This document shows, piece by piece, positions 10,315 through 23,232 of a stretch of 32,000 bases of DNA. A program made the translations under genes and the position numbers. This DNA is from Mucisphaera calidilacus (GTDB lineage: Bacteria > Planctomycetota > Phycisphaerae > Phycisphaerales > Phycisphaeraceae): NCBI RefSeq assembly GCF_007748075.1, contig NZ_CP036280.1:180001-212000 (forward strand), written 5' to 3'. The notes below the pieces were generated by a model, which made no database searches, had not been told where the DNA came from, and was given only the letters and a program-made list of their open reading frames with translations. How positions within the stretch are numbered: the stretch's first letter is position 1; the number at the start of each line of letters is the position of its first letter.

Positions 10315-11220
10315 TCATCCGTTCATGAGCGCGGAAGCTTCGTCGTAGGCCGCGGGGAGGCTTTCGAGGACGCGGTCGATGGCCTCGGGTTCGAGCCCGA
10401 GTGTTTCGAGCCATTCGGCCTTGGGCTCGGTGCGGTCTTCGCCACGCGTGAAGCCGAAGCCGGCCTTGGCGGCGAGGCAGTCGGCGACGGCGACGATGGT
10501 GGGCAGGACGGCTTCCTCGCCGTCGAAGCGTTCGGGCTCGTGGTGGCCGCCGATGACGTTGACCAGGGCGGGCGGGAACTTCCAGCTGCGTGCCAGGACG
10601 CGGCCGAAGTCCTCGTGCGAGGCGTTGAAGGTCTTGAACTCGACCTCGCGGAACGAGATGTTTTCGTCGGCGAGGACGGTCTCGATGCACTGGATGAACT
10701 TGGGCCGACGCGACTGGATCTCGACCATGAGGCCGAGGTCGTGGATGAGTCCTGCGAGGAAGGCTTCGTCGAGGTAGCCCATCGAGAGCTCGTTGACGAG
10801 CAGCCGTGCGCCGGCGGCGGTGGCGATGCTGTGGAGCCAGAGGTCCTTGGCGGAGAAGCCCTCGGTGATCTTGCCGCTGCGGAAGAGCTTGGTGAGGCTG
10901 GCGGCGATGGCGATGTTCTTGATGGCGTTGAGCCCGAGCAGGACGATGGCCCGGTTGATGGAGCCCACCTGTGCCGGGACGCCGTAGAAGGCGGAGTTAA
11001 CGACCTTGAGGATGCGGGCGCCGAGCGCGGGGTCGTTCTGGATGACCAGATTGAGATCCTGCGCGGTGGCGTTGGGATCGTCGATCAGGTCCATGATCTT
11101 GGTGGTGACTTCGGGCAGGGTGGCGATGTGGCTGATCTCGCGGATCGCCGGCTCGACAACCTTCTCGGCTTTGGTGATGCGTGCTTCGATCTCTGCTTTG
11201 CTGGTTCCGGATGCGGCCAT
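10315..11220 (-). CDS. HDOD domain-containing signalling protein
   Basis: LPEVTTKIMDLIDDPNATAQDLNLVIQNDPALGARILKVVNSAFYG, LWLHSIATAAGARLL and GLIHDLGLMV match the HDOD (HD-related output domain) pattern. I prefer the ATG at 11220 (GAGAGGGA RBS) over the ATG at 11310. Confidence 0.85.
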   Translation of the reverse strand: MAASGTSKAEIEARITKAEKVVEPAIREISHIATLPEVTTKIMDLIDDPNATAQDLNLVIQNDPALGARILKVVNSAFYGVPAQVGSINRAIVLLGLNAIKNIAIAASLTKLFRSGKITEGFSAKDLWLHSIATAAGARLLVNELSMGYLDEAFLAGLIHDLGLMVEIQSRRPKFIQCIETVLADENISFREVEFKTFNASHEDFGRVLARSWKFPPALVNVIGGHHEPERFDGEEAVLPTIVAVADCLAAKAGFGFTRGEDRTEPKAEWLETLGLEPEAIDRVLESLPAAYDEASALMNG

Positions 11221-11336
11221 GGTGTCCCTCTCGTGGAATAAATGAAGACCTGTCTGGGGGATCGGTGCGGGCTGGGCGGGACTTGATGGCGTCCAGTTAA
11301 TCTGCCTCATTGCAGGGCGGATGAGGTGGGTCTAGC

Positions 11337-11633
11337 ATGGCTGTGATGGCTTGGGGATTTCGCCTGAATCAGTTCGATGGGCCCGGTTTTGATCCGGGTC
11401 GGGTTGCGCGGGCCAACTGGCCTGCGGCGATGTCGTTGCTGGTGGCCGGGGTTGTGGTTCTGATCCCGCTGATCGCGTTGCTGGCCGTCGGGATCGCGGT
11501 GGGGATGCTCTGCTACCTGGTGTTATCGGTCGTTGCGGGCGTGATGAACGTGGTGAGCGGCGTCTTCGGCCCGAGGGGGGGCGGCCGCGGGCGTGACTCG
11601 GACGGCCGGGAGAATGTTCGGGTGATTCGATGA
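11337..11633 (+). CDS. Small membrane protein (98 aa), first gene of the MscS/Mla-like operon
   Basis: A long hydrophobic core (AAMSLLVAGVVVLIPLIALLAVGIAVGMLCYLVLSVVAGVMNVV) is followed by a Gly/Arg-rich tail GPRGGGRGRDSDGRE. The stop overlaps the next start (ATGA at 11630-11633). Confidence 0.55.
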   Translation: MAVMAWGFRLNQFDGPGFDPGRVARANWPAAMSLLVAGVVVLIPLIALLAVGIAVGMLCYLVLSVVAGVMNVVSGVFGPRGGGRGRDSDGRENVRVIR

Positions 11634-13243
11634 TCGCGGCGATGCGTTACCTGGTGCTGGTTCTGGCGGTTTCCCTGTTGGTGCCGGTGGCGGCGCAGGA
11701 TTTTGGGATGGACCCGCTGCTGATGCCGCCGGCCGAGTCAGCGGAGGTGCCCAAGACGAGCGAGGCGGGGTCGGAGCCGGAGGCGGCGGCGGGCGGGGCG
11801 TTGCAGGCGTCGGCGGAGGATGATCGCGCGGAGTACCTGGATGATGCGCGTTGGAAGGTGCTCCGGGACGTGATCGAGGATCGAGCCCCGGCGTGGATGA
11901 TCGAGGACGGCGCGCTGGGGGTGGCGTACTGGCAGTGGATCAGCGTGCTGCTGTTTATTTTCGGCGCGGTGGTGATCGATTACTCGGTGCAGATCGTGCT
12001 TCGGGTGGCGATCAACCGGTTGTTGAAGGAGCAGGGGGCGCACGCCCGCCGGGATGAGCTGCGCAAGACGCTGCGTCCCTTCGGCCTGACCGCGGGTGCC
12101 TTGTTCTGCCTGGTGACGCTGAACTTCCTGCAGTTTGACGGGGTGGTGTACGCGATCGCGCACGGCTCGCTGGCGATCTTCACGGTGCTGACGGGTTCGG
12201 TGTCGGCGTGGCGTTTTATTGATCTGGTGGGCGACGTGTTTGCCCGCTACGCACAGAACACGAGCACGCGTTTTGATGACGTGCTGATCCCGCTGATCCG
12301 CAAGACGCTCAAGCTGTTCGTGCTGGTGCTGGGCTTTGTGTACGCGTCGACGTCGCTGGGGCTGAACCCGTGGCCGATCGCCGCGTCGCTGGGCCTGGGC
12401 GGTGTGGCGTTTGCGTTTGCGGCGAAGGACACGGTGGAGAACTTCTTCGGCTCGCTCGCGGTGCTGGTGGACCGTCCGTTTGATGTGGGCGACTGGGTGG
12501 TGATTGACGGTCAGGAGGGGACGATCGAGTCGGTGGGTTTCCGGTCGACCCGGGTGCGGACGTTCTACAACTCGCAGATCACGATCCCGAACGCGAATCT
12601 GGTGCGTGCCGCGGTGGATAACTACGGGCGTCGTCGTTATCGGCGGTGGAAGACGACGATGGGCCTGCAGTACGACACGCCGCCCGACAAGCTGCTGGCG
12701 TTCGCTGAGGGCGCCCGGGAGCTGGTGCGTCAGCACCCGTTTACGCGCAAGGACTACTACCAGGTGTGGGTGAACGAATTCAACGCGTCGAGCATCGACG
12801 TGCTGCTCTATATGTTCTTTGACGTACCGGACTGGAGCACGGAGCTGCGTGAGCGTGAGCGTCTGCTGGTGGATCTGGTCCGGCTGGCAGACCAGGTGGG
12901 CGTGAGTTTCGCGTTCCCGACGACGACGGTGCACCTCAAGCAGGACGAGGGTGATCCGGTTTATAAGCAGCACGAGCGTCCCAAGCGGATCACGGACCGG
13001 TTGGCAATGCTCCAGGGCGCTCGGGCGGCGCGTTCGATCATCAGCGATCAGCCCTGGCGTGAGACGCTGCCGGACCCCGTGGATTACGGGAAGAATGACC
13101 TGGGTCTTGAACTGGACGCGGCGGGTAATCCGATAGAACCGGTGGAGACGCAGGTTTCGGACGATCCCGAGACGGCGTCGGAGGACGGTGTCGAGGTCGG
13201 GGAGGCCGGAGAGGATACCGAGCCCAGACGAGAGACCCTGTGA
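11630..13243 (+). CDS. MscS-family mechanosensitive ion channel protein
   Basis: 537 aa with an N-terminal signal peptide. The MscS core is AFAAKDTVENFFGSLAVLVDRPFDVGDWVVIDGQEGTIESVGFRSTRVRTFYNSQITIPNANL. Confidence 0.92.
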   Translation: MIAAMRYLVLVLAVSLLVPVAAQDFGMDPLLMPPAESAEVPKTSEAGSEPEAAAGGALQASAEDDRAEYLDDARWKVLRDVIEDRAPAWMIEDGALGVAYWQWISVLLFIFGAVVIDYSVQIVLRVAINRLLKEQGAHARRDELRKTLRPFGLTAGALFCLVTLNFLQFDGVVYAIAHGSLAIFTVLTGSVSAWRFIDLVGDVFARYAQNTSTRFDDVLIPLIRKTLKLFVLVLGFVYASTSLGLNPWPIAASLGLGGVAFAFAAKDTVENFFGSLAVLVDRPFDVGDWVVIDGQEGTIESVGFRSTRVRTFYNSQITIPNANLVRAAVDNYGRRRYRRWKTTMGLQYDTPPDKLLAFAEGARELVRQHPFTRKDYYQVWVNEFNASSIDVLLYMFFDVPDWSTELRERERLLVDLVRLADQVGVSFAFPTTTVHLKQDEGDPVYKQHERPKRITDRLAMLQGARAARSIISDQPWRETLPDPVDYGKNDLGLELDAAGNPIEPVETQVSDDPETASEDGVEVGEAGEDTEPRRETL

Positions 13244-14076
13244 CGCACCCGGCTTTTGCTCTGACACAACATGGTTGGCTGCGACGGCTGCTGCGCCCGT
13301 GGTCGCTGCTGATGCGGACCTCGGAGCGGGGGCTGATCATCTTTGCGGCGGTGGGGGCTGCGCTGCGTCTGGCGGTGCGTCCGTCGACGTGGAACCGTGC
13401 GGTGCGTGAGGAGTTAGCCCGTCAGGTGATCAACGCGGGCCTGTTCGCGGTGCCCGCGGCGGCGTTGGCGGGGATCGGCGTCGGGGTCTTCATCGTGGTT
13501 CAGGCCCAGCAGTGGCTGGACCGTTTGGGGCACGTCTCGCTGCTGGGGCCGCTGCTGGTGGTGGGCGTGGTCCGGGAGATCGCTCCGCTGGTCACGAACC
13601 TGCTGGTGATCGGGCGCAGCGGGTCGTCGATGACGACCGAGGTGGCGAACATGAAGATGCTGGGGGACGTGGACCTGCTTGAGGCGCAGGGGATCGACCC
13701 GTTTGTCTACCTGGTGGTGCCGAGGATTCTCGGGATGGGGATCGCGGTGTTGTGCCTGAACCTGATCGTGCTGCTGGTGAGTCTGATCAGCGGTCGTCTG
13801 CTGGTGCTGATCGTGAGTTCGGACCCGACGCCTATGGTTGCGTTCGCGGACAACGTGCTGCGTTCGCTGGAGGTGATCGATGTGTTCAACCTGCTGGCGA
13901 AGACGGTGCTGACGGGCATGCTCACCGGCGCGATCTGCTGCGTGACGGGGTTGCAGGCGGCGCCGCACCCGCTGGCGGTGGCGGCTGCGTCGCGTGCGTC
14001 GTTCATGCGTTGCATGGCGGCGTTGCTGACGGTGTCGGGTTTTGTGTCGCTGAGCATGTATCTGGATCTGGTGTGA
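13240..14076 (+). CDS. mlaE: MlaE-family ABC transporter permease
   Basis: The MlaE signature region is VREIAPLVTNLLVIGRSGSSMTTEVANMKMLGDVDLLEAQGIDPFVYLVVPRILG. The GTG start overlaps the mscS stop (GTGA at 13240-13243). Confidence 0.88.
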   Translation: MTHPAFALTQHGWLRRLLRPWSLLMRTSERGLIIFAAVGAALRLAVRPSTWNRAVREELARQVINAGLFAVPAAALAGIGVGVFIVVQAQQWLDRLGHVSLLGPLLVVGVVREIAPLVTNLLVIGRSGSSMTTEVANMKMLGDVDLLEAQGIDPFVYLVVPRILGMGIAVLCLNLIVLLVSLISGRLLVLIVSSDPTPMVAFADNVLRSLEVIDVFNLLAKTVLTGMLTGAICCVTGLQAAPHPLAVAAASRASFMRCMAALLTVSGFVSLSMYLDLV

Positions 14077-14077
14077 G

Positions 14078-14836
14078 ATGATCGTGACGCACCCCGAGCC
14101 GCCGGCGGCCGAGACGGACACGCGGAGCGTGGAGCGTCTGGTGCTGCGTGATGTTGACCTGCCCGCGGGTCGTCAGCACGATACGCGACTGAGTGGCGTG
14201 AATCTGTCGCTGGGCGTGGGCGAGATGGTGATCGTTCAGTCGGAGCCGGAGCGGCCGCGTCTGCCGCTGGCCGACGCGATCATGGGGTTGACGGACACGG
14301 CGGGCGGGAGCATCGCGGTGGACGACTCGTCGTGGGATGACCTGACGCCTGCGCGTGCGGCCCGGCTTCGGAGCCAGATCGGGCGGGTGTTCGATCACGA
14401 CCGGTGGCTGAGCGGGCTGACGCTCGAGGAGAATGTTTTTCTCGCGGCGCGGTATCACCACCAGATGCGTGAGGAGACGATGGTGGTGGAGGCAGTGCGT
14501 CTGGCGGAGAGTTTTGGTCTGGCGGGCTTGCCGACGAGCCTGCCGTCGCGGTCGCCTGTCGAGCTGCGTCAGAAGGTGGCGTGGATCCGTGCGCTGCTGG
14601 GGCCTCGTCGTCTGCTGATCCTTGAGCAGCCGCTGGGTGGTGTTTCGGCGCAGGACGCGCGTGCGTTGGGGCGTTCGTTGGGGCAGTTTCGGGCGCAGGG
14701 TGCGGCGGTGATCTGGATCACGGACGTCCCGGTGCCGATCGACTGGCCCGGGATGCTGCCCGATTACCTGGCGCGTGTGACGGGGACCGAGTTGGCGGTG
14801 GAGCCGGGGATGCTGCCGCGTGGAGGAGATCCATGA
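14078..14836 (+). CDS. MlaF-like ABC nucleotide-binding-domain homologue with degenerate catalytic motifs (probable pseudo-ATPase)
   Basis: Colinear with E. coli MlaF as recalled from memory. Walker A GPSGxGKT is replaced by SEPERPRL. The Q-loop Q is replaced by D (FDHDRW). The signature LSGG is replaced by RSPVEL. Walker B hhhhDE is replaced by LLILEQ. The H-loop SHD is replaced by ITDV. ATG lies 1 nt after the mlaE stop. Confidence 0.8.
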   Translation: MIVTHPEPPAAETDTRSVERLVLRDVDLPAGRQHDTRLSGVNLSLGVGEMVIVQSEPERPRLPLADAIMGLTDTAGGSIAVDDSSWDDLTPARAARLRSQIGRVFDHDRWLSGLTLEENVFLAARYHHQMREETMVVEAVRLAESFGLAGLPTSLPSRSPVELRQKVAWIRALLGPRRLLILEQPLGGVSAQDARALGRSLGQFRAQGAAVIWITDVPVPIDWPGMLPDYLARVTGTELAVEPGMLPRGGDP

Positions 14837-15870
14837 GTCGACCGCTGGTGCAACGATACGCGGGGCCGGTCGCCGGCCTGTTCGTGGTGAGTGTTCTGAT
14901 CCTGCTGCTGGTGCTGGTGCTGGCGGCGAGCAGCCGTGGCAACTGGTTTGCGCGCACGGTTCCGGTGACGGTGACGCTGCCGGAGGAGGGCGCATTTGGC
15001 CTGCGGCCGGGCGCGGACATCCAGATCCTCGGCATCGTCGCGGGCAACGTGACCGAGATCACGCTCGTGGGCGACCGCCTGGTGGCACAGGGACGGATCC
15101 GCGGGGATCTGGCGACGCTGCTGCGTGTGGATGTCCCGGTTTACCTGCGTCGCACGCTGCTGGTGTCGGGCGACACGTACCTGGAGATCGTGCGGAGCGA
15201 GGGGACGCCTTTTGCGGAGGGCGAGACGATGGTGCTGCGGGCGCAGACGGACCCGAGTCTCGAGTCGTTGCCCGGCGAGCTGCGCGAGACGCTGGCGTCG
15301 TTCACGCGTACCGCGCGGGCTTACGAGGGGTTGCTCGAACGCATCGAGGATCCGGAGGGGCGTGTGCAGCAGATCCTGGCGAACACCGAGTCGGTGACGC
15401 GTGAGATGGAGCGTGTGGTGGTGGCTTTTCGTGAGCAGGACGCGATCGGCATGATCGCGGACATGCGCGAACGTGTGGACCGGATCATCGCGTCGCTGGA
15501 CAACCTCGTGGGTGTGGCGACGGAGGGTGTGGAGACGGCGACGGCGACGGTGCGCACGGTCGAGGAGCAGCTGACCTACCTGCCGGAGCTGGCGGAGGCG
15601 TCGGCGGAGACGATCAGGCTGGTGCAGGGAAACCTGACGCAGCTGCGTGAGATCATCGAGTCGCTCGAGCGTGTGACCGAGACGCTGAGCGACGAGCTGC
15701 GTGACTCGCCTGGCGTGCTGATGCAGGTCCGTTCGACGCTCAAGGAGCTCGAGTCGTTGAGCCGGGCGTTGCGTCGGAGCTGGCTGGTGACGGGACCGGA
15801 GCTGGGGCGGGAGCCGTCGGACGGTCCGGATGAGCCGGTGGGTGGCGTTGATCTGATTGGGAATCGCTGA
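14833..15870 (+). CDS. mlaD: MlaD/MCE-domain protein with a long coiled-coil C-terminal region
   Basis: An N-terminal TM helix (VAGLFVVSVLILLLVLVLAA) is followed by an MCE domain (VTVTLPEEGAFGLRPGADIQILGIVAGNVTEITLVGDRL…) and about 190 aa of helical E/L/R-rich sequence. ATGA overlap with the upstream gene, and a GGAGGAG RBS. Confidence 0.85.
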   Translation: MSRPLVQRYAGPVAGLFVVSVLILLLVLVLAASSRGNWFARTVPVTVTLPEEGAFGLRPGADIQILGIVAGNVTEITLVGDRLVAQGRIRGDLATLLRVDVPVYLRRTLLVSGDTYLEIVRSEGTPFAEGETMVLRAQTDPSLESLPGELRETLASFTRTARAYEGLLERIEDPEGRVQQILANTESVTREMERVVVAFREQDAIGMIADMRERVDRIIASLDNLVGVATEGVETATATVRTVEEQLTYLPELAEASAETIRLVQGNLTQLREIIESLERVTETLSDELRDSPGVLMQVRSTLKELESLSRALRRSWLVTGPELGREPSDGPDEPVGGVDLIGNR

Positions 15871-16811
15871 TGCGCAGGACGTGCTGGTTGTTATTGGCTC
15901 TGCTGCTGGTGTTGCCCGCCTGCCGGGGTGCGGGGCGTGCGTCGTCGCAGAGCGTCGAGACGGAGTACCACGGTCAGCTGGTGAAGCTCGCGCACGAGGC
16001 GATGGAGCGAGGCGACGCGGACCGGGCTGCGGACCTCTACCTGCGTCGGCTCGAAGAGGCGCGTCGCGTGGACGATCCGGAGGCGTTGGTCACCGTCGCG
16101 GCGTGGGCGGCCCGGGCGATGATGGCGGCGGGGCGCGCGCGCGAGGTCGCGCCGATCCTGAGTGAGGCGGAGCTGGCGGCCGATCGGCTGGGTGTGGTTC
16201 GTGCGGACCTGTCGCTGCTGCGTGGGGCGTCGGAGCTCCGCGAGGGCGAGGCGGATCTGGCGATTGTGTGTGTGGAGCCGATCCTGCGTGGCGATATCGC
16301 GGCGAGTCGGGATCAGCAGCTGGACGCGTTGCTGATCGCGGGGCACGCCGAGATGGATCGTGGCGAGTCGGGCAACGCGCAACTGGCCTGGATCGATGCG
16401 CGGGGGCTCGCTCAGGAGTTGGACGAGGCGTCGGCGTGGGCGCGGACGCTGCGGCTGGAGGCGCGACTGGCACGAGTATCGCGTGACGTGGCGCGGGCGG
16501 CGGCGACCTCGGATCAGGAGGCCGGCTACTGGCGTTCGGCGCATCGCTACCTGGCGATGGCGCACGCGTTGCACCGAGCGGCGCAGGCCTATGCCGAGGC
16601 CGGCGATCTGGAGCTTGCGTCGGATCGGGCGTTGCGGGCGGGCCTGAGTTTCAAGGCGCAGGAGCGTTTCGGGGAGGCGCACGAGGCGTTGCACCTGGCG
16701 CTGGCCGCGTCGGGCGAGGGGGGCGACGCCACCCGCCGGGAACTGGCCGAGCGTGCGTTGGAGGATGCGCGGCTGCGGGCGCTGGATGATCAGTCGGGCA
16801 GCGCGGAGTAG
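15870..16811 (+). CDS. Putative lipoprotein, Ala/Arg/Leu-rich helical-repeat (TPR-like), last gene of the operon
   Basis: The signal plus lipobox-like sequence is MRRTCWLLLALLLVLPAC. The remainder is helical repeat-like. The start overlaps the mlaD stop (TGATG). Confidence 0.65.
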   Translation: MRRTCWLLLALLLVLPACRGAGRASSQSVETEYHGQLVKLAHEAMERGDADRAADLYLRRLEEARRVDDPEALVTVAAWAARAMMAAGRAREVAPILSEAELAADRLGVVRADLSLLRGASELREGEADLAIVCVEPILRGDIAASRDQQLDALLIAGHAEMDRGESGNAQLAWIDARGLAQELDEASAWARTLRLEARLARVSRDVARAAATSDQEAGYWRSAHRYLAMAHALHRAAQAYAEAGDLELASDRALRAGLSFKAQERFGEAHEALHLALAASGEGGDATRRELAERALEDARLRALDDQSGSAE

Positions 16812-18193: not shown

Positions 18194-19165
18194 GTGCTGG
18201 CGCATCCGGGCGTCCGGGGCTATGCTCAGGGCATGACTCAAATGCGTTCGAGCGGTGTGATGCCGCGTAATCACCTGGCTCATGCGGACTGTCTGGAGGC
18301 GATGGCGTCGTGGCCCGAGGATGTGATCGACCTGATCTTCGCGGACCCGCCTTACAACATCGGGTTTGATTACGACGGGCACTATCACGACAAGCTGACG
18401 GACGATGAATACGTGGACTGGACCTGTCGCTGGATCGATGCCTGCGCACGGCTCCTGAAGCCGACGGGCAGCTTCTACGTGCTGATCGGCGACGAGTATG
18501 CGGCGGAGTGCCGCGTGCACCTCAAGAAGCTCCAGCGCGAGGGGCAGCTGCTGTTTCGCAACTGGATTGTCTGGCATTACACGTTCGGACAACGCTGCAA
18601 GGTAAAGTTCAACCGCAGCCACGCGCACCTGTTCTACTGCGTCGGCTCGGCGTCGGTCGGGCGTCAGGGCAAGCCGCGGGCGGACCTGGCCAGGCGTCGG
18701 TCGTTCACGTTCAATCACGAGGCGATCGCGGTGCCCTCGGCGCGTCAGACGACCTACAAGGACAAGCGGGCCAATCCGGCGGGCAAGCTGCCCGACGACA
18801 CGTGGTACCTCAAGAACTACCCCGACACCGCGAACTGGTACGTGCGTCCGCAGGAGGCGTCGGAGGATGCGGGGGGCGGCTACTTCGAGCCGGACCTCGA
18901 CACGTGGTATCAGTCGCGGCTCTGCGGGACGTTCAAGGAGCGTCGGGGCTGGCACCCGTGCCAGCTGCCCGAGGCGCTGCTGGAGCGGATCGTGAAGGTG
19001 TCGTCGAATCCGGGGGACCTGGTCTTCGACCCGTTCGTGGGATCGGGGACGACGCTGGCGGTGGCCCGGCGTCTGGGGCGGGATTATCTCGGCTGCGAGC
19101 AGAGCGAGGCGTACGCGGAGCAGGCGCTGGAGCGGATCGAGGGTGAGGCCGTCACGACGGCGTGA
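18194..19165 (+). CDS. Beta-class DNA methyltransferase (N6_N4_Mtase family, DPPY type), no cognate endonuclease nearby
   Basis: Motif IV IFADPPYNIGFDY precedes motif I VFDPFVGSGTTLAVARRLGRDYLGCE, which is the beta-class order. The start is ambiguous: GTG at 18194 or ATG at 18233. Confidence 0.88.
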   Translation: MLAHPGVRGYAQGMTQMRSSGVMPRNHLAHADCLEAMASWPEDVIDLIFADPPYNIGFDYDGHYHDKLTDDEYVDWTCRWIDACARLLKPTGSFYVLIGDEYAAECRVHLKKLQREGQLLFRNWIVWHYTFGQRCKVKFNRSHAHLFYCVGSASVGRQGKPRADLARRRSFTFNHEAIAVPSARQTTYKDKRANPAGKLPDDTWYLKNYPDTANWYVRPQEASEDAGGGYFEPDLDTWYQSRLCGTFKERRGWHPCQLPEALLERIVKVSSNPGDLVFDPFVGSGTTLAVARRLGRDYLGCEQSEAYAEQALERIEGEAVTTA

Positions 19166-19287: not shown

Positions 19288-22200
19288 ATGGCAGACGGTC
19301 CTGATTTCAACGATCCCAACGGGTTTGTCCACCTTCACCTGCACAGCCAGTACTCGCTGCTGGACGGCGGCAACCGTCTCGACCGGCTCGTGAAGCGGGT
19401 CCGGGAACTGGGGATGCCGGCGGTGGCGGTGACCGACCACGGCAACCTGTTTGGCGCGATCGATTTCTACACACGCGCCAAGAACGAGGGGATCAAGCCG
19501 ATCCTGGGGATCGAGGCGTACGTGGCGCCGGACGTGGACGGGCCGAGCGACCGGACGTCGCGCGCCTTTACGGGTGTGTCGGACGGCGGGTTCCACCTCG
19601 TGCTGCTAGCCGAGGACATGACCGGCTGGCGGAACCTGCTCAAGCTGTCGTCGGACGCGTTCATCAACGGCTTTTACTTCAAGCCGAGGATGGACAAGGG
19701 GACGGTGGAGGCGCACGCGTCGGGCCTGATCGCGATCAACGGGCACCTGGGCTCGTCGATCGCGCACTGGCTGGTGAAGCACGTGCAGTCGGGCGAGAAG
19801 ACGTACTTCAACCGGGCGATGGAGGAGGCGGCGTGGCACAAGGAGGTATTCGGGGTCAACGAGGCGGGCGAGCCGCGTTTCTACCTCGAGCTTCAGCGTC
19901 ACGAGGAGAAGCTCCAGGACGAGATCAACCCGCACGTGATCAAGATCGCGCGCAAGCTGGATATCCCGCTGGTCTGCGACAACGATGCGCACTTCCTGCT
20001 GGAATCGGATTACGACGCGCACGACACGCTCTGCTGCATCTCGATGGGCAAGATCAAGACGGACGAGAGCCGCCTGCACTACCCGCGCGGGCTGTATGTC
20101 AAGTCGCCGGCGCAGATGCGCGGGCTGTTCGAGGACGTGCCCGAGGCGCTGGACAACACGCTCAAGATCGCGGAGCGGTGCAACGTCGCGTTGGACTTCG
20201 ACGCGAACCACGCCCCGGTGGTGCGGATCGACTTCAAGAAGGACAAGGCCCTCAAGGGCAAGTCGGCGCCACCCGTGGGCTCGAGCGACTGGTTCAAGCG
20301 GTTCTGTGCGCAGTACGAGTTGCTGCCTTTCGATGCGACACGTGACGCGGCGCTGAGCGCGGAGGACCTCAAGACCGAGTGCGACAAGGCGCTGCGCGAC
20401 CTGTGCGAGGCGGGCCTGCTCTGGCGATACGGCGAGGGCGGGATCACCGACGAGATCCGGGCGCGGCTCGAGCGTGAGCTGAAGATCCTGTCGGACAAAC
20501 TCATCTCGGCCTACTTCCTGATCGTGTGGGATTTTGTGAACTACGCGCGGGCCAACGGCATCCCGTCGAACGCCCGTGGCTCGGGCGTCGGGACGATGGT
20601 CGGTTACGTGCTCGGCCTGTCGAACGCGTGCCCGGTGCAGTACGGGCTGCTGTTCGAGCGGTTCACCGATCCGGACCGGTCGGAGTACCCCGATATCGAT
20701 ATCGACATGTGCCAGGACGGGCGTCAGGCGGTGATCGATTACGTCCGGCAGAAGTACGGGCACGTGGCGCAGATCATCACGTTCGGGACGCTCAAGGCGC
20801 GGGCGGCGATCCGGGACGTGGGGCGTGTGCTCAACATGCCGTTGTCCGAGGTCGACAAGGTCTGCAAGCTGGTGGGCGACGGGCTCGGGACGACACTCGA
20901 CAAGGCGCTGGACCAGGAGCCGGACCTGCGCAAGCTGTACGACGACTCGCCCGAGCACCAGAAGATGTACGACACGGCGCGTCGGCTGGAGGGGATGGCC
21001 CGTCACGCCGGCGTGCACGCGGCGGGCGTGGTGCTGGCGACCCGGCCGCTGGACGACATCGTGCCGCTGTATCAGCCGGCGGGCACCGAGCAAGTCGTGA
21101 CGCAGTGGGACGGGCCGACGTGCGAGCGTGTCGGTCTGCTCAAGATGGACTTTCTGGGGCTGCGGACGCTCTCGATTCTGGAGCGTGCCAAGCTGCTGGT
21201 TCGTTCGTGCTTCAGCGAGGAGCGGATCCGTCAGGCGGCGGCGCGGCCCGACCGGCCCGAGCAGCTGGAAGACCCGGCGTGGGACCCGCTGGACCTCGAG
21301 CGACTGAGTTACGACGACCCGCGGGTGCTGAGCCTCTTTGCGCGGGGCGAGACGGCGGCGGTGTTCCAGTTCGAGTCGGGGGGCATGCGCAACCTGCTGA
21401 TGGCGATGAAGCCGGACCGGCTGGAGGACCTGATCGCGGCGAACGCGTTGTACCGGCCCGGCCCGATGGAGCTGATCCCGAACTACAACAACCGCAAGCA
21501 CGGCCGGGAGGAGGTCCCCGAGCAGCACGAGATCGTGCGGAAGTTCACGGCGGAGACGCACGGGATCATGGTGTACCAGGAGCAGGTGATGCAGATCGTC
21601 CACGAGCTGGGCGGCATCCCGTTGCGACAGGCGTACACGCTCATCAAGGCGATCTCGAAGAAAAAAGAGAAGGTGATCAACGCCAACCGCGCTTCGTTCC
21701 TCGACGGCGCGGAGGAGAAGGGCCTGGCGCGGGCGAAGGCGGAAGAGCTTTTCGACCTGATCCTCAAGTTCGCGGGCTACGGCTTCAACAAGTCGCACTC
21801 GACGGGCTACGCGATCGTCGCCTACCAGACGGCGTACCTCAAGACCTTCTTCCCGATCCAGTACATGGCGGCCGTGCTGACCTACGAGTCGGTGAGCACG
21901 GACAAGGTCGTCGAGTACATCGACACCTGCCGGCGTCTGTCGCTGCCCGACGGGACGCGAGGCGTCGAGGTCAAGCAGCCGGACATCCAGCGCTCGGAGG
22001 TCGGCTTCACGGTTGTCTACGACGACGACGAACCGGGGCCCGACGAGCGTGGCGGGCATCACGGGCACATCCGCTTCGGGCTGTCGGCGGTCAAGGGCGT
22101 GGGCGAGAAGGCGATCAACGCGATCATCGAGGCGCGCGAGAAGGAGGGGCCGTTCCGCGGCCTACACGACTTCTGCGAGCGTGTGCCGCTGGACGCGGTG

Positions 22201-23232
22201 AACAAGACGTGCATCGAGGCGCTGATCAAGTGCGGCGCGTTCGACGAGCTGCACGGCCAGGATCGCCGCGCGGCGATGCTCGAGGCGCTGCCCGACGCGG
22301 TGCAGGCGGGCAAGCGAGCCGCCGCGGACCGGGCGTCGGGCCAGATGAACTTCTTCGGGGGTGTCACAGAAGCGGAGCAGGAGAACGCGCCCCCGACGCA
22401 GCTGCCTCGGGTCGAGGCGTGGAGCCGACGCGAGACGCTCGCCTTCGAGAAGGAGGTGCTGGGGTTCTTCGTGTCGAGTCACCCGCTCGACGAGCACCGC
22501 GGAGCGATCGCTCGGTTCGGGACGGCGTCGGTGCGTGACATCGCAGACGTCGCGGAGGGCGTGGACATCGTGATGGGCGGGATGATCACGCGTGTCCGGC
22601 AGACGGTGACGCGGGCGAAGCAGGAGAAGATGGCGATGCTGACGATCGAGGACCACACCGGCCCGATCGACGCGGTCTGTTTCCCGCGGACCTACGACGT
22701 GGTCGCGCCGCTGCTCGAGCCGGACGAGGTGGTCTACATCGTGGGCAAGGTGGATCGTCGACGCGAGGAGCCGAACATCGTCGTGGACAAGGTGATCCCG
22801 GCGGATCAGGCTCAGGCGCAGCTCACGCGCGCGGTTCGCATCGAGCTGGAGCCGGACACGACGGTGGGCAACGGCCACGCCGGTGCCTACAAGACGATGC
22901 TCTCGGAGCTGCGCGAGGTGCTGCGGCAGGCGTCACGCCGTGCCAACGGCGCGACGGCGGAAGTCCAGCTGCGGATCCGCGAGCGCGCCTCCGACGTCTC
23001 GTTCCGGCTGCAGGGGCTGCGCGTCGCGATCGATGATCACCTGACCGACGCGATCGGCAGCGTGATCGGGCGTTGCCCGTGCACGGAGGGTCGATGCGTA
23101 CTGGTGGGTGCGGGGCGGCTGCGGCCGATGGAGGATCAGCGCTACGACGCGTCGCAGGACGAGGGCGAGAAACTGGCGATGAGCTCGTCGGTTCAGGGCG
23201 AAGAGCACTGCGCCTCGATCGATCGTTACTGA
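19288..23232 (+). CDS. dnaE: DNA polymerase III alpha subunit
   Basis: 1314 aa. It has the PHP domain FVHLHLHSQYSLLDG, a palm/fingers region (GYGFNKSHSTGYA) and an OB-fold near the C-terminus. Confidence 0.97.
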   Translation: MADGPDFNDPNGFVHLHLHSQYSLLDGGNRLDRLVKRVRELGMPAVAVTDHGNLFGAIDFYTRAKNEGIKPILGIEAYVAPDVDGPSDRTSRAFTGVSDGGFHLVLLAEDMTGWRNLLKLSSDAFINGFYFKPRMDKGTVEAHASGLIAINGHLGSSIAHWLVKHVQSGEKTYFNRAMEEAAWHKEVFGVNEAGEPRFYLELQRHEEKLQDEINPHVIKIARKLDIPLVCDNDAHFLLESDYDAHDTLCCISMGKIKTDESRLHYPRGLYVKSPAQMRGLFEDVPEALDNTLKIAERCNVALDFDANHAPVVRIDFKKDKALKGKSAPPVGSSDWFKRFCAQYELLPFDATRDAALSAEDLKTECDKALRDLCEAGLLWRYGEGGITDEIRARLERELKILSDKLISAYFLIVWDFVNYARANGIPSNARGSGVGTMVGYVLGLSNACPVQYGLLFERFTDPDRSEYPDIDIDMCQDGRQAVIDYVRQKYGHVAQIITFGTLKARAAIRDVGRVLNMPLSEVDKVCKLVGDGLGTTLDKALDQEPDLRKLYDDSPEHQKMYDTARRLEGMARHAGVHAAGVVLATRPLDDIVPLYQPAGTEQVVTQWDGPTCERVGLLKMDFLGLRTLSILERAKLLVRSCFSEERIRQAAARPDRPEQLEDPAWDPLDLERLSYDDPRVLSLFARGETAAVFQFESGGMRNLLMAMKPDRLEDLIAANALYRPGPMELIPNYNNRKHGREEVPEQHEIVRKFTAETHGIMVYQEQVMQIVHELGGIPLRQAYTLIKAISKKKEKVINANRASFLDGAEEKGLARAKAEELFDLILKFAGYGFNKSHSTGYAIVAYQTAYLKTFFPIQYMAAVLTYESVSTDKVVEYIDTCRRLSLPDGTRGVEVKQPDIQRSEVGFTVVYDDDEPGPDERGGHHGHIRFGLSAVKGVGEKAINAIIEAREKEGPFRGLHDFCERVPLDAVNKTCIEALIKCGAFDELHGQDRRAAMLEALPDAVQAGKRAAADRASGQMNFFGGVTEAEQENAPPTQLPRVEAWSRRETLAFEKEVLGFFVSSHPLDEHRGAIARFGTASVRDIADVAEGVDIVMGGMITRVRQTVTRAKQEKMAMLTIEDHTGPIDAVCFPRTYDVVAPLLEPDEVVYIVGKVDRRREEPNIVVDKVIPADQAQAQLTRAVRIELEPDTTVGNGHAGAYKTMLSELREVLRQASRRANGATAEVQLRIRERASDVSFRLQGLRVAIDDHLTDAIGSVIGRCPCTEGRCVLVGAGRLRPMEDQRYDASQDEGEKLAMSSSVQGEEHCASIDRY

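Follow-up and report, generated by a model that had tools for sequence, protein, structure and literature searches.

A predicted non-catalytic ABC nucleotide-binding domain protein is a conserved member of an MlaE/MCE gene cassette in Mucisphaera calidilacus and related bacteria

A 32,000-nucleotide stretch of the genome of Mucisphaera calidilacus (Planctomycetota, Phycisphaerae), here called the window, carries at positions 14078–14836 of the + strand a gene whose 252-amino-acid product has the fold of an ATP-binding cassette (ABC) nucleotide-binding domain (NBD) and, judged by its alignment columns, has lost all of the catalytic motifs of that domain. We refer to this protein as the pseudo-NBD (pNBD). 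It is 100% identical to QDU70347.1/WP_145444383.1, encoded on a 3.49-Mb contig of M. calidilacus, and it belongs to a large family whose genes lie between those for an MlaE-type permease and an MCE protein, with a gene for a putative TPR lipoprotein in fourth place. Taken together, the data described below make it very probable that pNBD is a conserved, non-catalytic subunit of this MlaE/MCE/TPR-lipoprotein cassette. The overall interpretation we favour, and hold to be probable though well short of secure, is that pNBD serves an ATP-independent MCE conduit as a structural or gating component without catalytic activity.

The pNBD open reading frame (ORF) is intact and has a length typical of its family. 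The MlaE gene upstream ends with a TGA codon at 14074–14076, which is separated by a single base from the pNBD ATG at 14078 (TGAgATG), and the pNBD stop codon is in turn overlapped by the ATG of the MCE gene at 14833 (ATGA, 14833–14836). The GC content of third codon positions (GC3) is 0.81, compared with 0.78–0.91 in the adjoining genes, and the cosine similarity between the codon usage of pNBD and that of its pooled neighbours is 0.91 in frame and 0.52 and 0.60 in the two other frames. An initial annotation of this stretch had described the gene as intact, normal in codon bias and translationally coupled on both sides, and these figures agree with that description.

Motif columns were read from HMMER alignments and from MAFFT alignments that included eight canonical control NBDs. 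The Walker A motif or P-loop (residues 55–62, positions 14240–14263) reads SEPERPRL where the canonical sequence is GxSGSGKS, so that it is free of glycine and carries Arg61 in place of the lysine. The Walker A pattern G..G.GK[ST] occurs in none of 304 sampled family members and in all eight controls. Arginine is the commonest residue in the lysine column (50 of 186 members, or ~27%) and alanine, serine, histidine, glycine and leucine are also common there. At the Q-loop position (14393–14395) pNBD has Asp106, preceded by a G-R-V-F sequence that is invariant in the family; relatives have Glu, Asp, Ala, Gly or Ser in this column and all eight controls have Gln. The position of the LSGGQ signature (residues 159–163, positions 14552–14566) is occupied by SPVEL, and the signature columns vary across the family. 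Walker B (residues 179–184, positions 14612–14629) reads LLILEQ, in which the aspartate has become Glu183 and the catalytic glutamate Gln184. Only 2 of the 304 family members match the Walker B pattern hhhDEP that all eight controls possess; the aspartate column is Glu in ~90% of the family and the glutamate column holds Arg, Gln, His or Asn. Finally, the switch histidine, present in every control, is replaced by Asp216 in pNBD (14723–14725, downstream of the family-conserved Trp213) and by Ser, Asp, Gly, Ala or Thr in the family. On this reading of the columns all five catalytic motifs of pNBD are replaced, and loss of both ATP binding and ATP hydrolysis is predicted.

The initial annotation had already called every catalytic motif degenerate, and the HMMER, MAFFT and structural alignments all bear this out; they also rule out a misalignment that conceals intact motifs. 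The scaffold strings quoted in that annotation are present at residues 38–53, 113–120, 179–185 and 213–216. Its reading of the signature as RSPVE was correct as to the loss and off by one residue in register, which is immaterial. A possible arrangement in which an acidic pseudo-P-loop and a basic pseudo-signature mimic the ATP-glued dimer was considered and rejected: the net charges of the two segments over the 304 members are −0.5 ± 1.3 and −0.1 ± 1.0, respectively, and there is no consistent complementarity.

Despite these losses the protein is recognizable as an ABC NBD. The match to PF00005 is marginal (26.3 bits against a cut-off of 25 bits) and covers only profile positions 27–135, leaving the Walker A region unaligned. 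A phmmer search of the PDB with pNBD retrieved MacB (E = 4.8e-12), LolD (2e-11) and MlaF (1.5e-5), and a search with the family profile, which reached E-values of about 2e-22, retrieved LolD (2.6e-22) and MlaF (2.3e-18); canonical NBDs score at most ~82 bits against the pNBD family profile. The AlphaFold2 (AF2) model of pNBD has a mean predicted local distance difference test score (pLDDT) of 91.1 and a predicted template modelling (TM) score of 0.87. With this model Foldseek returned MacB, BceA, YbbA, FtsE, LolD, MlaF and MceG (8fed_H) at E = 1e-17 and TM scores of 0.65–0.79. As modelled, pNBD has a RecA-like core and a helical subdomain, and its homology to ABC NBDs is well above chance. The chain ends ~36 residues past the switch position, in a tail that varies across the family.

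The initial annotation had termed the protein an MlaF homologue. This is apt for the position of the gene and does not hold for the sequence, since LolD and MacB score better and none of the top 25 NCBIfam matches is an MlaF model. Judged by sequence, pNBD resembles MlaF no more than it does LolD, MacB, FtsE or the NBDs of ABCB transporters, and "MlaF" is a positional label. UniRef names QDU70347.1 "Macrolide export ATP-binding/permease protein MacB" and relatives bear the name "organic solvent ABC transporter ATP-binding protein"; both names imply an active ATPase.

The pNBD family is large and well delimited. A direct homology search recovered ~40 relatives with 33–64% identity (E = 1e-89 to 1e-23), most of them without any Pfam match, and a clear gap separates these relatives from the first canonical ABC proteins, which appear at E = 1e-9. 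When 1.84 billion cluster representatives were searched with a profile, 574 clusters (at 50% identity) had E ≤ 1e-30, which places the size of the family at 574 clusters at least; the best 150 of these all lie below 1e-60. A profile-based word-index homology search added almost no new members.

Selection on the gene was gauged by the pairwise Nei–Gojobori ratio of nonsynonymous to synonymous divergence (dN/dS) in genome pairs that include some with unsaturated dS. The ratio for pNBD is 0.15–0.38, compared with 0.02–0.32 for MlaE and 0.02–0.37 for the MCE protein in the same pairs. In the least saturated pNBD pairs it is 0.21 at a dS of 0.16 (L009/L010) and 0.165 at a dS of 0.47 (L025/L028). 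These values indicate that pNBD is under purifying selection. They bear directly on the proposal of the initial annotation that the gene is a retained pseudo-ATPase and not a decaying gene, which is upheld by the 574 clusters, the complete absence of Walker A from the sampled members, the dN/dS values and the single fixed cassette. The orthologues share the same losses. As far as the sequences can tell, the nucleotide site was lost at the root of a large pNBD family in which the gene is selectively maintained, and the dead NBD is thus more general than had been proposed.

Conservation within pNBD is unevenly distributed. In 10-residue blocks, entropy is lowest at residues 101–130 (1.15–1.70), 171–180 (1.33) and 61–70 (1.80), and it is highest in the P-loop block 51–60 (2.86) and in the block following the D-loop, 191–200 (2.99), which are the least conserved structured parts of the protein. 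Strong conservation is seen in sequences flanking the former motifs, namely P-L-A-D after the P-loop, the G-R-V-F mentioned above, L-L-L-L-E-x-P, and W-x-T before the switch position. Residues W86, R103, W110, H127, W213, D66 and E183 are invariant and specific to the family. In solved ABC transporters the Q-loop region and the helical subdomain touch the coupling helix of the membrane subunit, and the ATP-dependent contact between the two NBDs is made by the P-loop, signature and D-loop. By the alignment, then, conservation in pNBD has moved off the P-loop, signature and D-loop and onto the strand and helix around the Q-loop position and helix α1.

To place pNBD in its genomic setting we compared eight loci with gene tables and 47 further loci from a GTDB-wide scan (started from a seven-sequence alignment), which were scanned with hidden Markov models; ~54 distinct family loci were examined in all. 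The order MlaE–pNBD–MCE–fourth gene is found in every family locus where the contig permits, and the spacing at the junctions of the cassette lies between −8 and +16 nt in each of the eight loci with gene calls. One hit of the scan, L055, was discarded as an unrelated canonical LolD-like ABC gene beside FloA. The carriers are Phycisphaerae and other Planctomycetota, Verrucomicrobiota, Kiritimatiellia and Lentisphaerota. Outside the Planctomycetes–Verrucomicrobia–Chlamydiae (PVC) group the cassette occurs in the Burkholderiales isolate Piscinibacter (Ideonella) sakaiensis (L056, CP182947, 1968092–1988790) and in a metagenome-assembled genome labelled "Gammaproteobacteria" (L042), where it was possibly acquired by horizontal transfer. 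The P. sakaiensis cassette has a shorter MCE gene (243 aa), with an additional ORF of 81 aa between it and the gene for the TPR protein.

In the window the cassette is part of a row of six co-directional + strand genes (11337–16811) whose stops and starts overlap or abut. The MlaE-type permease (13240–14076, 278 aa) matches PF02405 with E = 6.3e-43 over profile positions 2–210 of 212. The MCE protein (14833–15870, 345 aa) matches PF02470 with 27.0 bits (cut-off 25.1) and TIGR00996 with E = 1e-9, and its orthologues at other loci give weak or faint PF02470 matches. It has an N-terminal transmembrane anchor, an MCE domain at residues 43–120 and a long coiled-coil or helical C-terminal region, with matches to coiled-coil families over residues 140–320. 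The fourth cassette gene (15870–16811, 313 aa), which we call G4, has a start codon that overlaps the MCE stop by 1 nt and encodes a signal peptide with a lipobox (...VLPAC). A lipobox-like motif is present in 42 of 47 G4 orthologues. The G4 protein of the window has no Pfam match, PF03886 (PqiC) included; one orthologue (L004) lies above the TPR_12 and TPR_19 cut-offs, and a single-sequence AF2 model of G4 is all-helical at low confidence (pLDDT 67). From its sequence features we classify G4 as a predicted TPR lipoprotein built of all-alpha, TPR-like repeats.

Apart from pNBD, no canonical NBD is encoded in the 32-kb window, and no cassette-linked catalytic NBD was found in the ~54 family loci. 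The few ABC genes that do occur nearby were rejected as partners: the sporadic upstream ABC genes of L036 and L029 belong to complete OEP–HlyD–MacB/FtsX and ABC_tran_2 systems, and the ABC_tran genes of L001 and L041 encode two-NBD, ABC-F-like proteins on the opposite strand. Neither the 16 window ORFs scanned with Pfam nor the cassette loci with Pfam-annotated gene calls include a STAS gene. The statement that pNBD is the only encoded NBD stands for the cassette and for the 32-kb window. From the shared losses and the fixed cassette it follows that the sole NBD encoded with MlaE cannot act as a canonical ATPase.

The two genes preceding MlaE in the window encode a 98-aa predicted membrane protein (11337–11633), syntenic in the Mucisphaera clade only, and a 537-aa MscS-like channel (11630–13243; PF00924, E = 8.7e-22). 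The stop of the former overlaps the MscS start, and the MscS stop overlaps the MlaE start (GTGA). The same overlapping stops and starts join this pair of genes (11337–13243 in the window) to the cassette in the syntenic relatives L005 (7093–9137) and L006 (7281–9130). The initial annotation had suggested MscS as a partner in energizing or gating transport. The comparison does not support this idea: MscS adjoins the cassette in only three of 57 loci (the window, L005 and L006), and as a clade-specific extra it lies outside the conserved system.

The nearest counterparts of the cassette in architecture are Brucella MpcEFDA and the MlaEFD-type systems. The MlaFEDB complexes of Escherichia coli, Acinetobacter baumannii and Pseudomonas aeruginosa and the MlaEFD complex of Veillonella likewise combine MlaE, a membrane-anchored MCE protein and a subunit of NBD fold that are encoded together, and in Veillonella mlaEFD the E–NBD–D order and the overlapping junctions match those of the cassette (PMC10665443). 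However, MlaF is catalytic: its motifs are intact, its C terminus forms a handshake extension and in Proteobacteria it is partnered by the STAS protein MlaB. In the cassette the motifs are lost, and no STAS gene was seen at the loci scanned; some genuine Mla systems lack MlaB as well (PMC10665443). The cassette differs from Mla further in the long helical extension of its MCE protein, in the TPR lipoprotein as a fixed fourth subunit and in having neither MlaA nor MlaC. With the chimeric Mla–Pqi system MpcEFDA of Brucella abortus it shares a four-gene layout of MlaE-like permease, NBD, needle-type MCE protein and terminal lipoprotein, and the MCE proteins are of similar size (331 aa in MpcEFDA, which is proposed to span the envelope, and 345 aa here; PMC12436622). 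MpcF is described as an MlaF-homologous ABC ATPase, MpcE has a fused STAS domain and the lipoprotein MpcA resembles PqiC (PMC12436622); the cassette, in contrast, has a dead NBD, no fused STAS domain and, in G4, a TPR lipoprotein of ~313 aa without a PF03886 match.

PqiABC and LetAB form an MCE conduit across the periplasm without a catalytic ATPase, PqiC being an outer-membrane lipoprotein partner, and they show that MCE transport need not be driven by ATP. PqiA and LetA are, however, unrelated to MlaE and have no subunit of NBD fold, whereas the cassette keeps an ABC permease together with a dead NBD fold. CFTR, Pdr5/Cdr1 and TM287/288-type transporters also have catalytic residues replaced within an intact NBD fold and retain a non-hydrolytic NBD for structure or regulation. 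In these asymmetric transporters degeneration is confined to one of the two composite sites, where an intact Walker A continues to bind ATP, and hydrolysis takes place at the other; in the cassette, by contrast, a single type of NBD has lost Walker A, Q-loop, signature, Walker B glutamate and switch histidine, and a homodimer would have both sites dead. To our knowledge, every known ABC system keeps at least one hydrolytic site. The mycobacterial Mce1–4/YrbE systems likewise comprise MlaE-type permeases and MCE proteins with helical needles, and the fold of pNBD matches their ATPase MceG (8fed). The mce operons encode no NBD and rely on a distant, catalytic MceG, whereas the cassette always has an NBD gene, a non-catalytic one. 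Full-text literature searches yielded no description of a degenerate MlaF or of an MCE system with a pseudo-NBD, and no ABC system with a fully non-catalytic dedicated NBD was found.

How might such a system work? The conserved region of pNBD may be the face with which the NBDs of solved ABC transporters contact the coupling helix of their membrane subunit and, if so, two copies of pNBD would dock under the MlaE dimer as a cap that does not cycle and that would hold MlaE in its nucleotide-free state. In the MlaFEDB structures nucleotide-free MlaE has a V-shaped cavity open to the pore of the MCE protein MlaD, and MlaD transfers lipid to MlaC in the absence of ATP (PMC10212509); the PqiA and LetA systems function without any ATPase (PMC12436622). 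These precedents favour a cassette that would act as an ATP-independent and possibly gated conduit, in which lipids or other hydrophobic compounds would pass between the inner membrane and either the periplasm or the outer membrane, along a route that would lead from the inner membrane through the helical MCE tube to the TPR lipoprotein. We put the chance that the cassette runs as an ATP-independent conduit at about even.

Several considerations weigh against the structural or gating role in such a conduit. pNBD evolves ~2–3 times faster than MlaE, the reverse of the usual ABC pattern, and the constraint on it is moderate. Docking on MlaE is deduced from general knowledge of ABC structures and the conservation pattern. 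The sequence is possibly compatible with an unconventional nucleotide or ligand site on pNBD, and a catalytic MlaF is possibly encoded elsewhere in the M. calidilacus genome, as the precedent of mycobacterial MceG illustrates. Lastly, a class III nucleotidyl cyclase (PF00211) lies beside the cassette in 27 of 57 loci, a hint of signalling that a purely passive conduit leaves unexplained. The cyclases are CHASE2-, HAMP- or GAF-linked and stand upstream, downstream or convergent to the cassette in at least four arrangements (for example L001 12105–14249, L007 1391–3046, L031 8760–9974 and, on the − strand, L056 12599–13759), which suggests a functional link to cyclic-nucleotide signalling.

These cyclases are an argument for a different account, in which the complex is a signalling or regulatory device whose main task would be to sense the condition of the envelope or of its lipids, and in which pNBD is a cytoplasmic input or output domain that would bind a partner or a small ligand such as a cyclic nucleotide and thereby gate or report, instead of simply capping the permease. 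Also in keeping with it are a same-strand block downstream of the cassette, coding for an SH3_3 protein, an M48 lipoprotein peptidase, a CHASE2-cyclase and a Lactamase_B protein and conserved in L001 (10628–15219) and ~25 other loci of Kiritimatiellia, Verrucomicrobiota and Lentisphaerota, as well as the seven family-specific invariant residues listed above, which the generic fold does not explain. The block itself looks like an extended envelope-maintenance neighbourhood. However, no part of pNBD varies more than the former nucleotide pocket, making a conserved ligand site there unlikely, no cyclase is present in the Mucisphaera window or its two syntenic relatives, and MlaE and the MCE protein are in other respects typical parts of a transporter; we regard this account as unlikely. 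A lower probability still attaches to energization in trans, by which a catalytic MlaF-type ATPase encoded elsewhere would replace pNBD on MlaE or form a heterodimer with it, and transport would be driven by ATP. It is true that the distantly encoded MceG serves several mycobacterial Mce systems and is among the fold matches of pNBD, and that the family has a Burkholderiales isolate among its carriers; a canonical Mla system is the norm in Proteobacteria. Grasekamp et al. moreover list PVC genomes with more than one Mla-type cluster, and Kiritimatiella glycovorans has a canonical MlaA-C-D-F-E cluster and a second E-F-D cluster (PMC10665443 Dataset 1). On the other hand, pNBD is tightly or translationally coupled to MlaE and MCE at every locus, which argues for stoichiometric co-assembly, and in a heterodimer both composite sites would be degenerate, one by the pNBD signature and the other by its P-loop. 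Several complete Phycisphaerae genomes are listed with one MlaE, which may be that of this cassette, and no syntenic MlaF (PMC10665443 Dataset 1).

That pNBD is a cryptic ATPase with a non-canonical site, in which for example Arg61 stands in for the Walker lysine and Glu183 for the Walker B aspartate, is very improbable. The prevalence of arginine and glutamate in these two columns fits the idea, but arginine is not conserved, there is no glycine-rich loop and prolines lie inside the P-loop, and the Q-loop glutamine, signature, catalytic glutamate and switch histidine are all lost and variable. As for a recent pseudogene, or an artefact of alignment by eye, the PF00005 score barely above its cut-off is the one point in favour. 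Both are refuted, and we give them practically no weight: the reading frame is intact and of family-typical length, profile and structural alignments confirm the columns, the motif losses are common to the orthologues, dN/dS is well below 1 and synteny extends across phyla. The non-catalytic structural or gating subunit stays the reading we prefer.

Some further features of the window lie outside the cassette. The gene at 10315–11310 on the − strand is divergent from the operon; the genes syntenic with it in L005 and L006 have an HDOD domain (PF08668) and a weak HD match, and the arrangement is kept in the Mucisphaera clade. A putative DNA methyltransferase gene (18194–19165, + strand) lies between a ferredoxin gene and dnaE (19288–23232) and is syntenic in L005 and L006, the two closest relatives. 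The methyltransferase orthologues there are annotated PF01555 (N6_N4_Mtase), and the gene tables of these two loci contain no restriction-enzyme family. The GC skew of the window is strongly positive (+0.2 to +0.34) over the first ~17 kb and ~0 beyond 24 kb, and the cumulative skew reaches a plateau at ~25–30 kb.

The energization of MCE/Mla systems and the direction in which they move lipids are still debated, and a large natural family whose MlaE invariably comes with a dead NBD makes it possible to test directly what such machinery does without hydrolysing ATP. The result would be a new kind of ABC system. The two isolate genomes, those of M. calidilacus and P. sakaiensis, are possible experimental handles. 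More tentatively, and with somewhat less than even confidence, we suggest that an ancient PVC-wide cassette turned an ABC transporter into an ATP-independent trans-envelope conduit in which the dead NBD became a structural or gating module, wired in many lineages to cyclic-nucleotide signalling through neighbouring cyclases. If true, this would be the first ABC-type permease family with a wholly non-catalytic dedicated NBD, and a natural experiment on the capabilities of MlaE and MCE proteins in the absence of ATP. The names now attached to these proteins in databases (ATP-binding, MacB, organic-solvent ABC ATPase) mislead, and the ATP-driven lipid transport inferred for Planctomycetota, Verrucomicrobiota, Kiritimatiellia and Lentisphaerota may be wrong.

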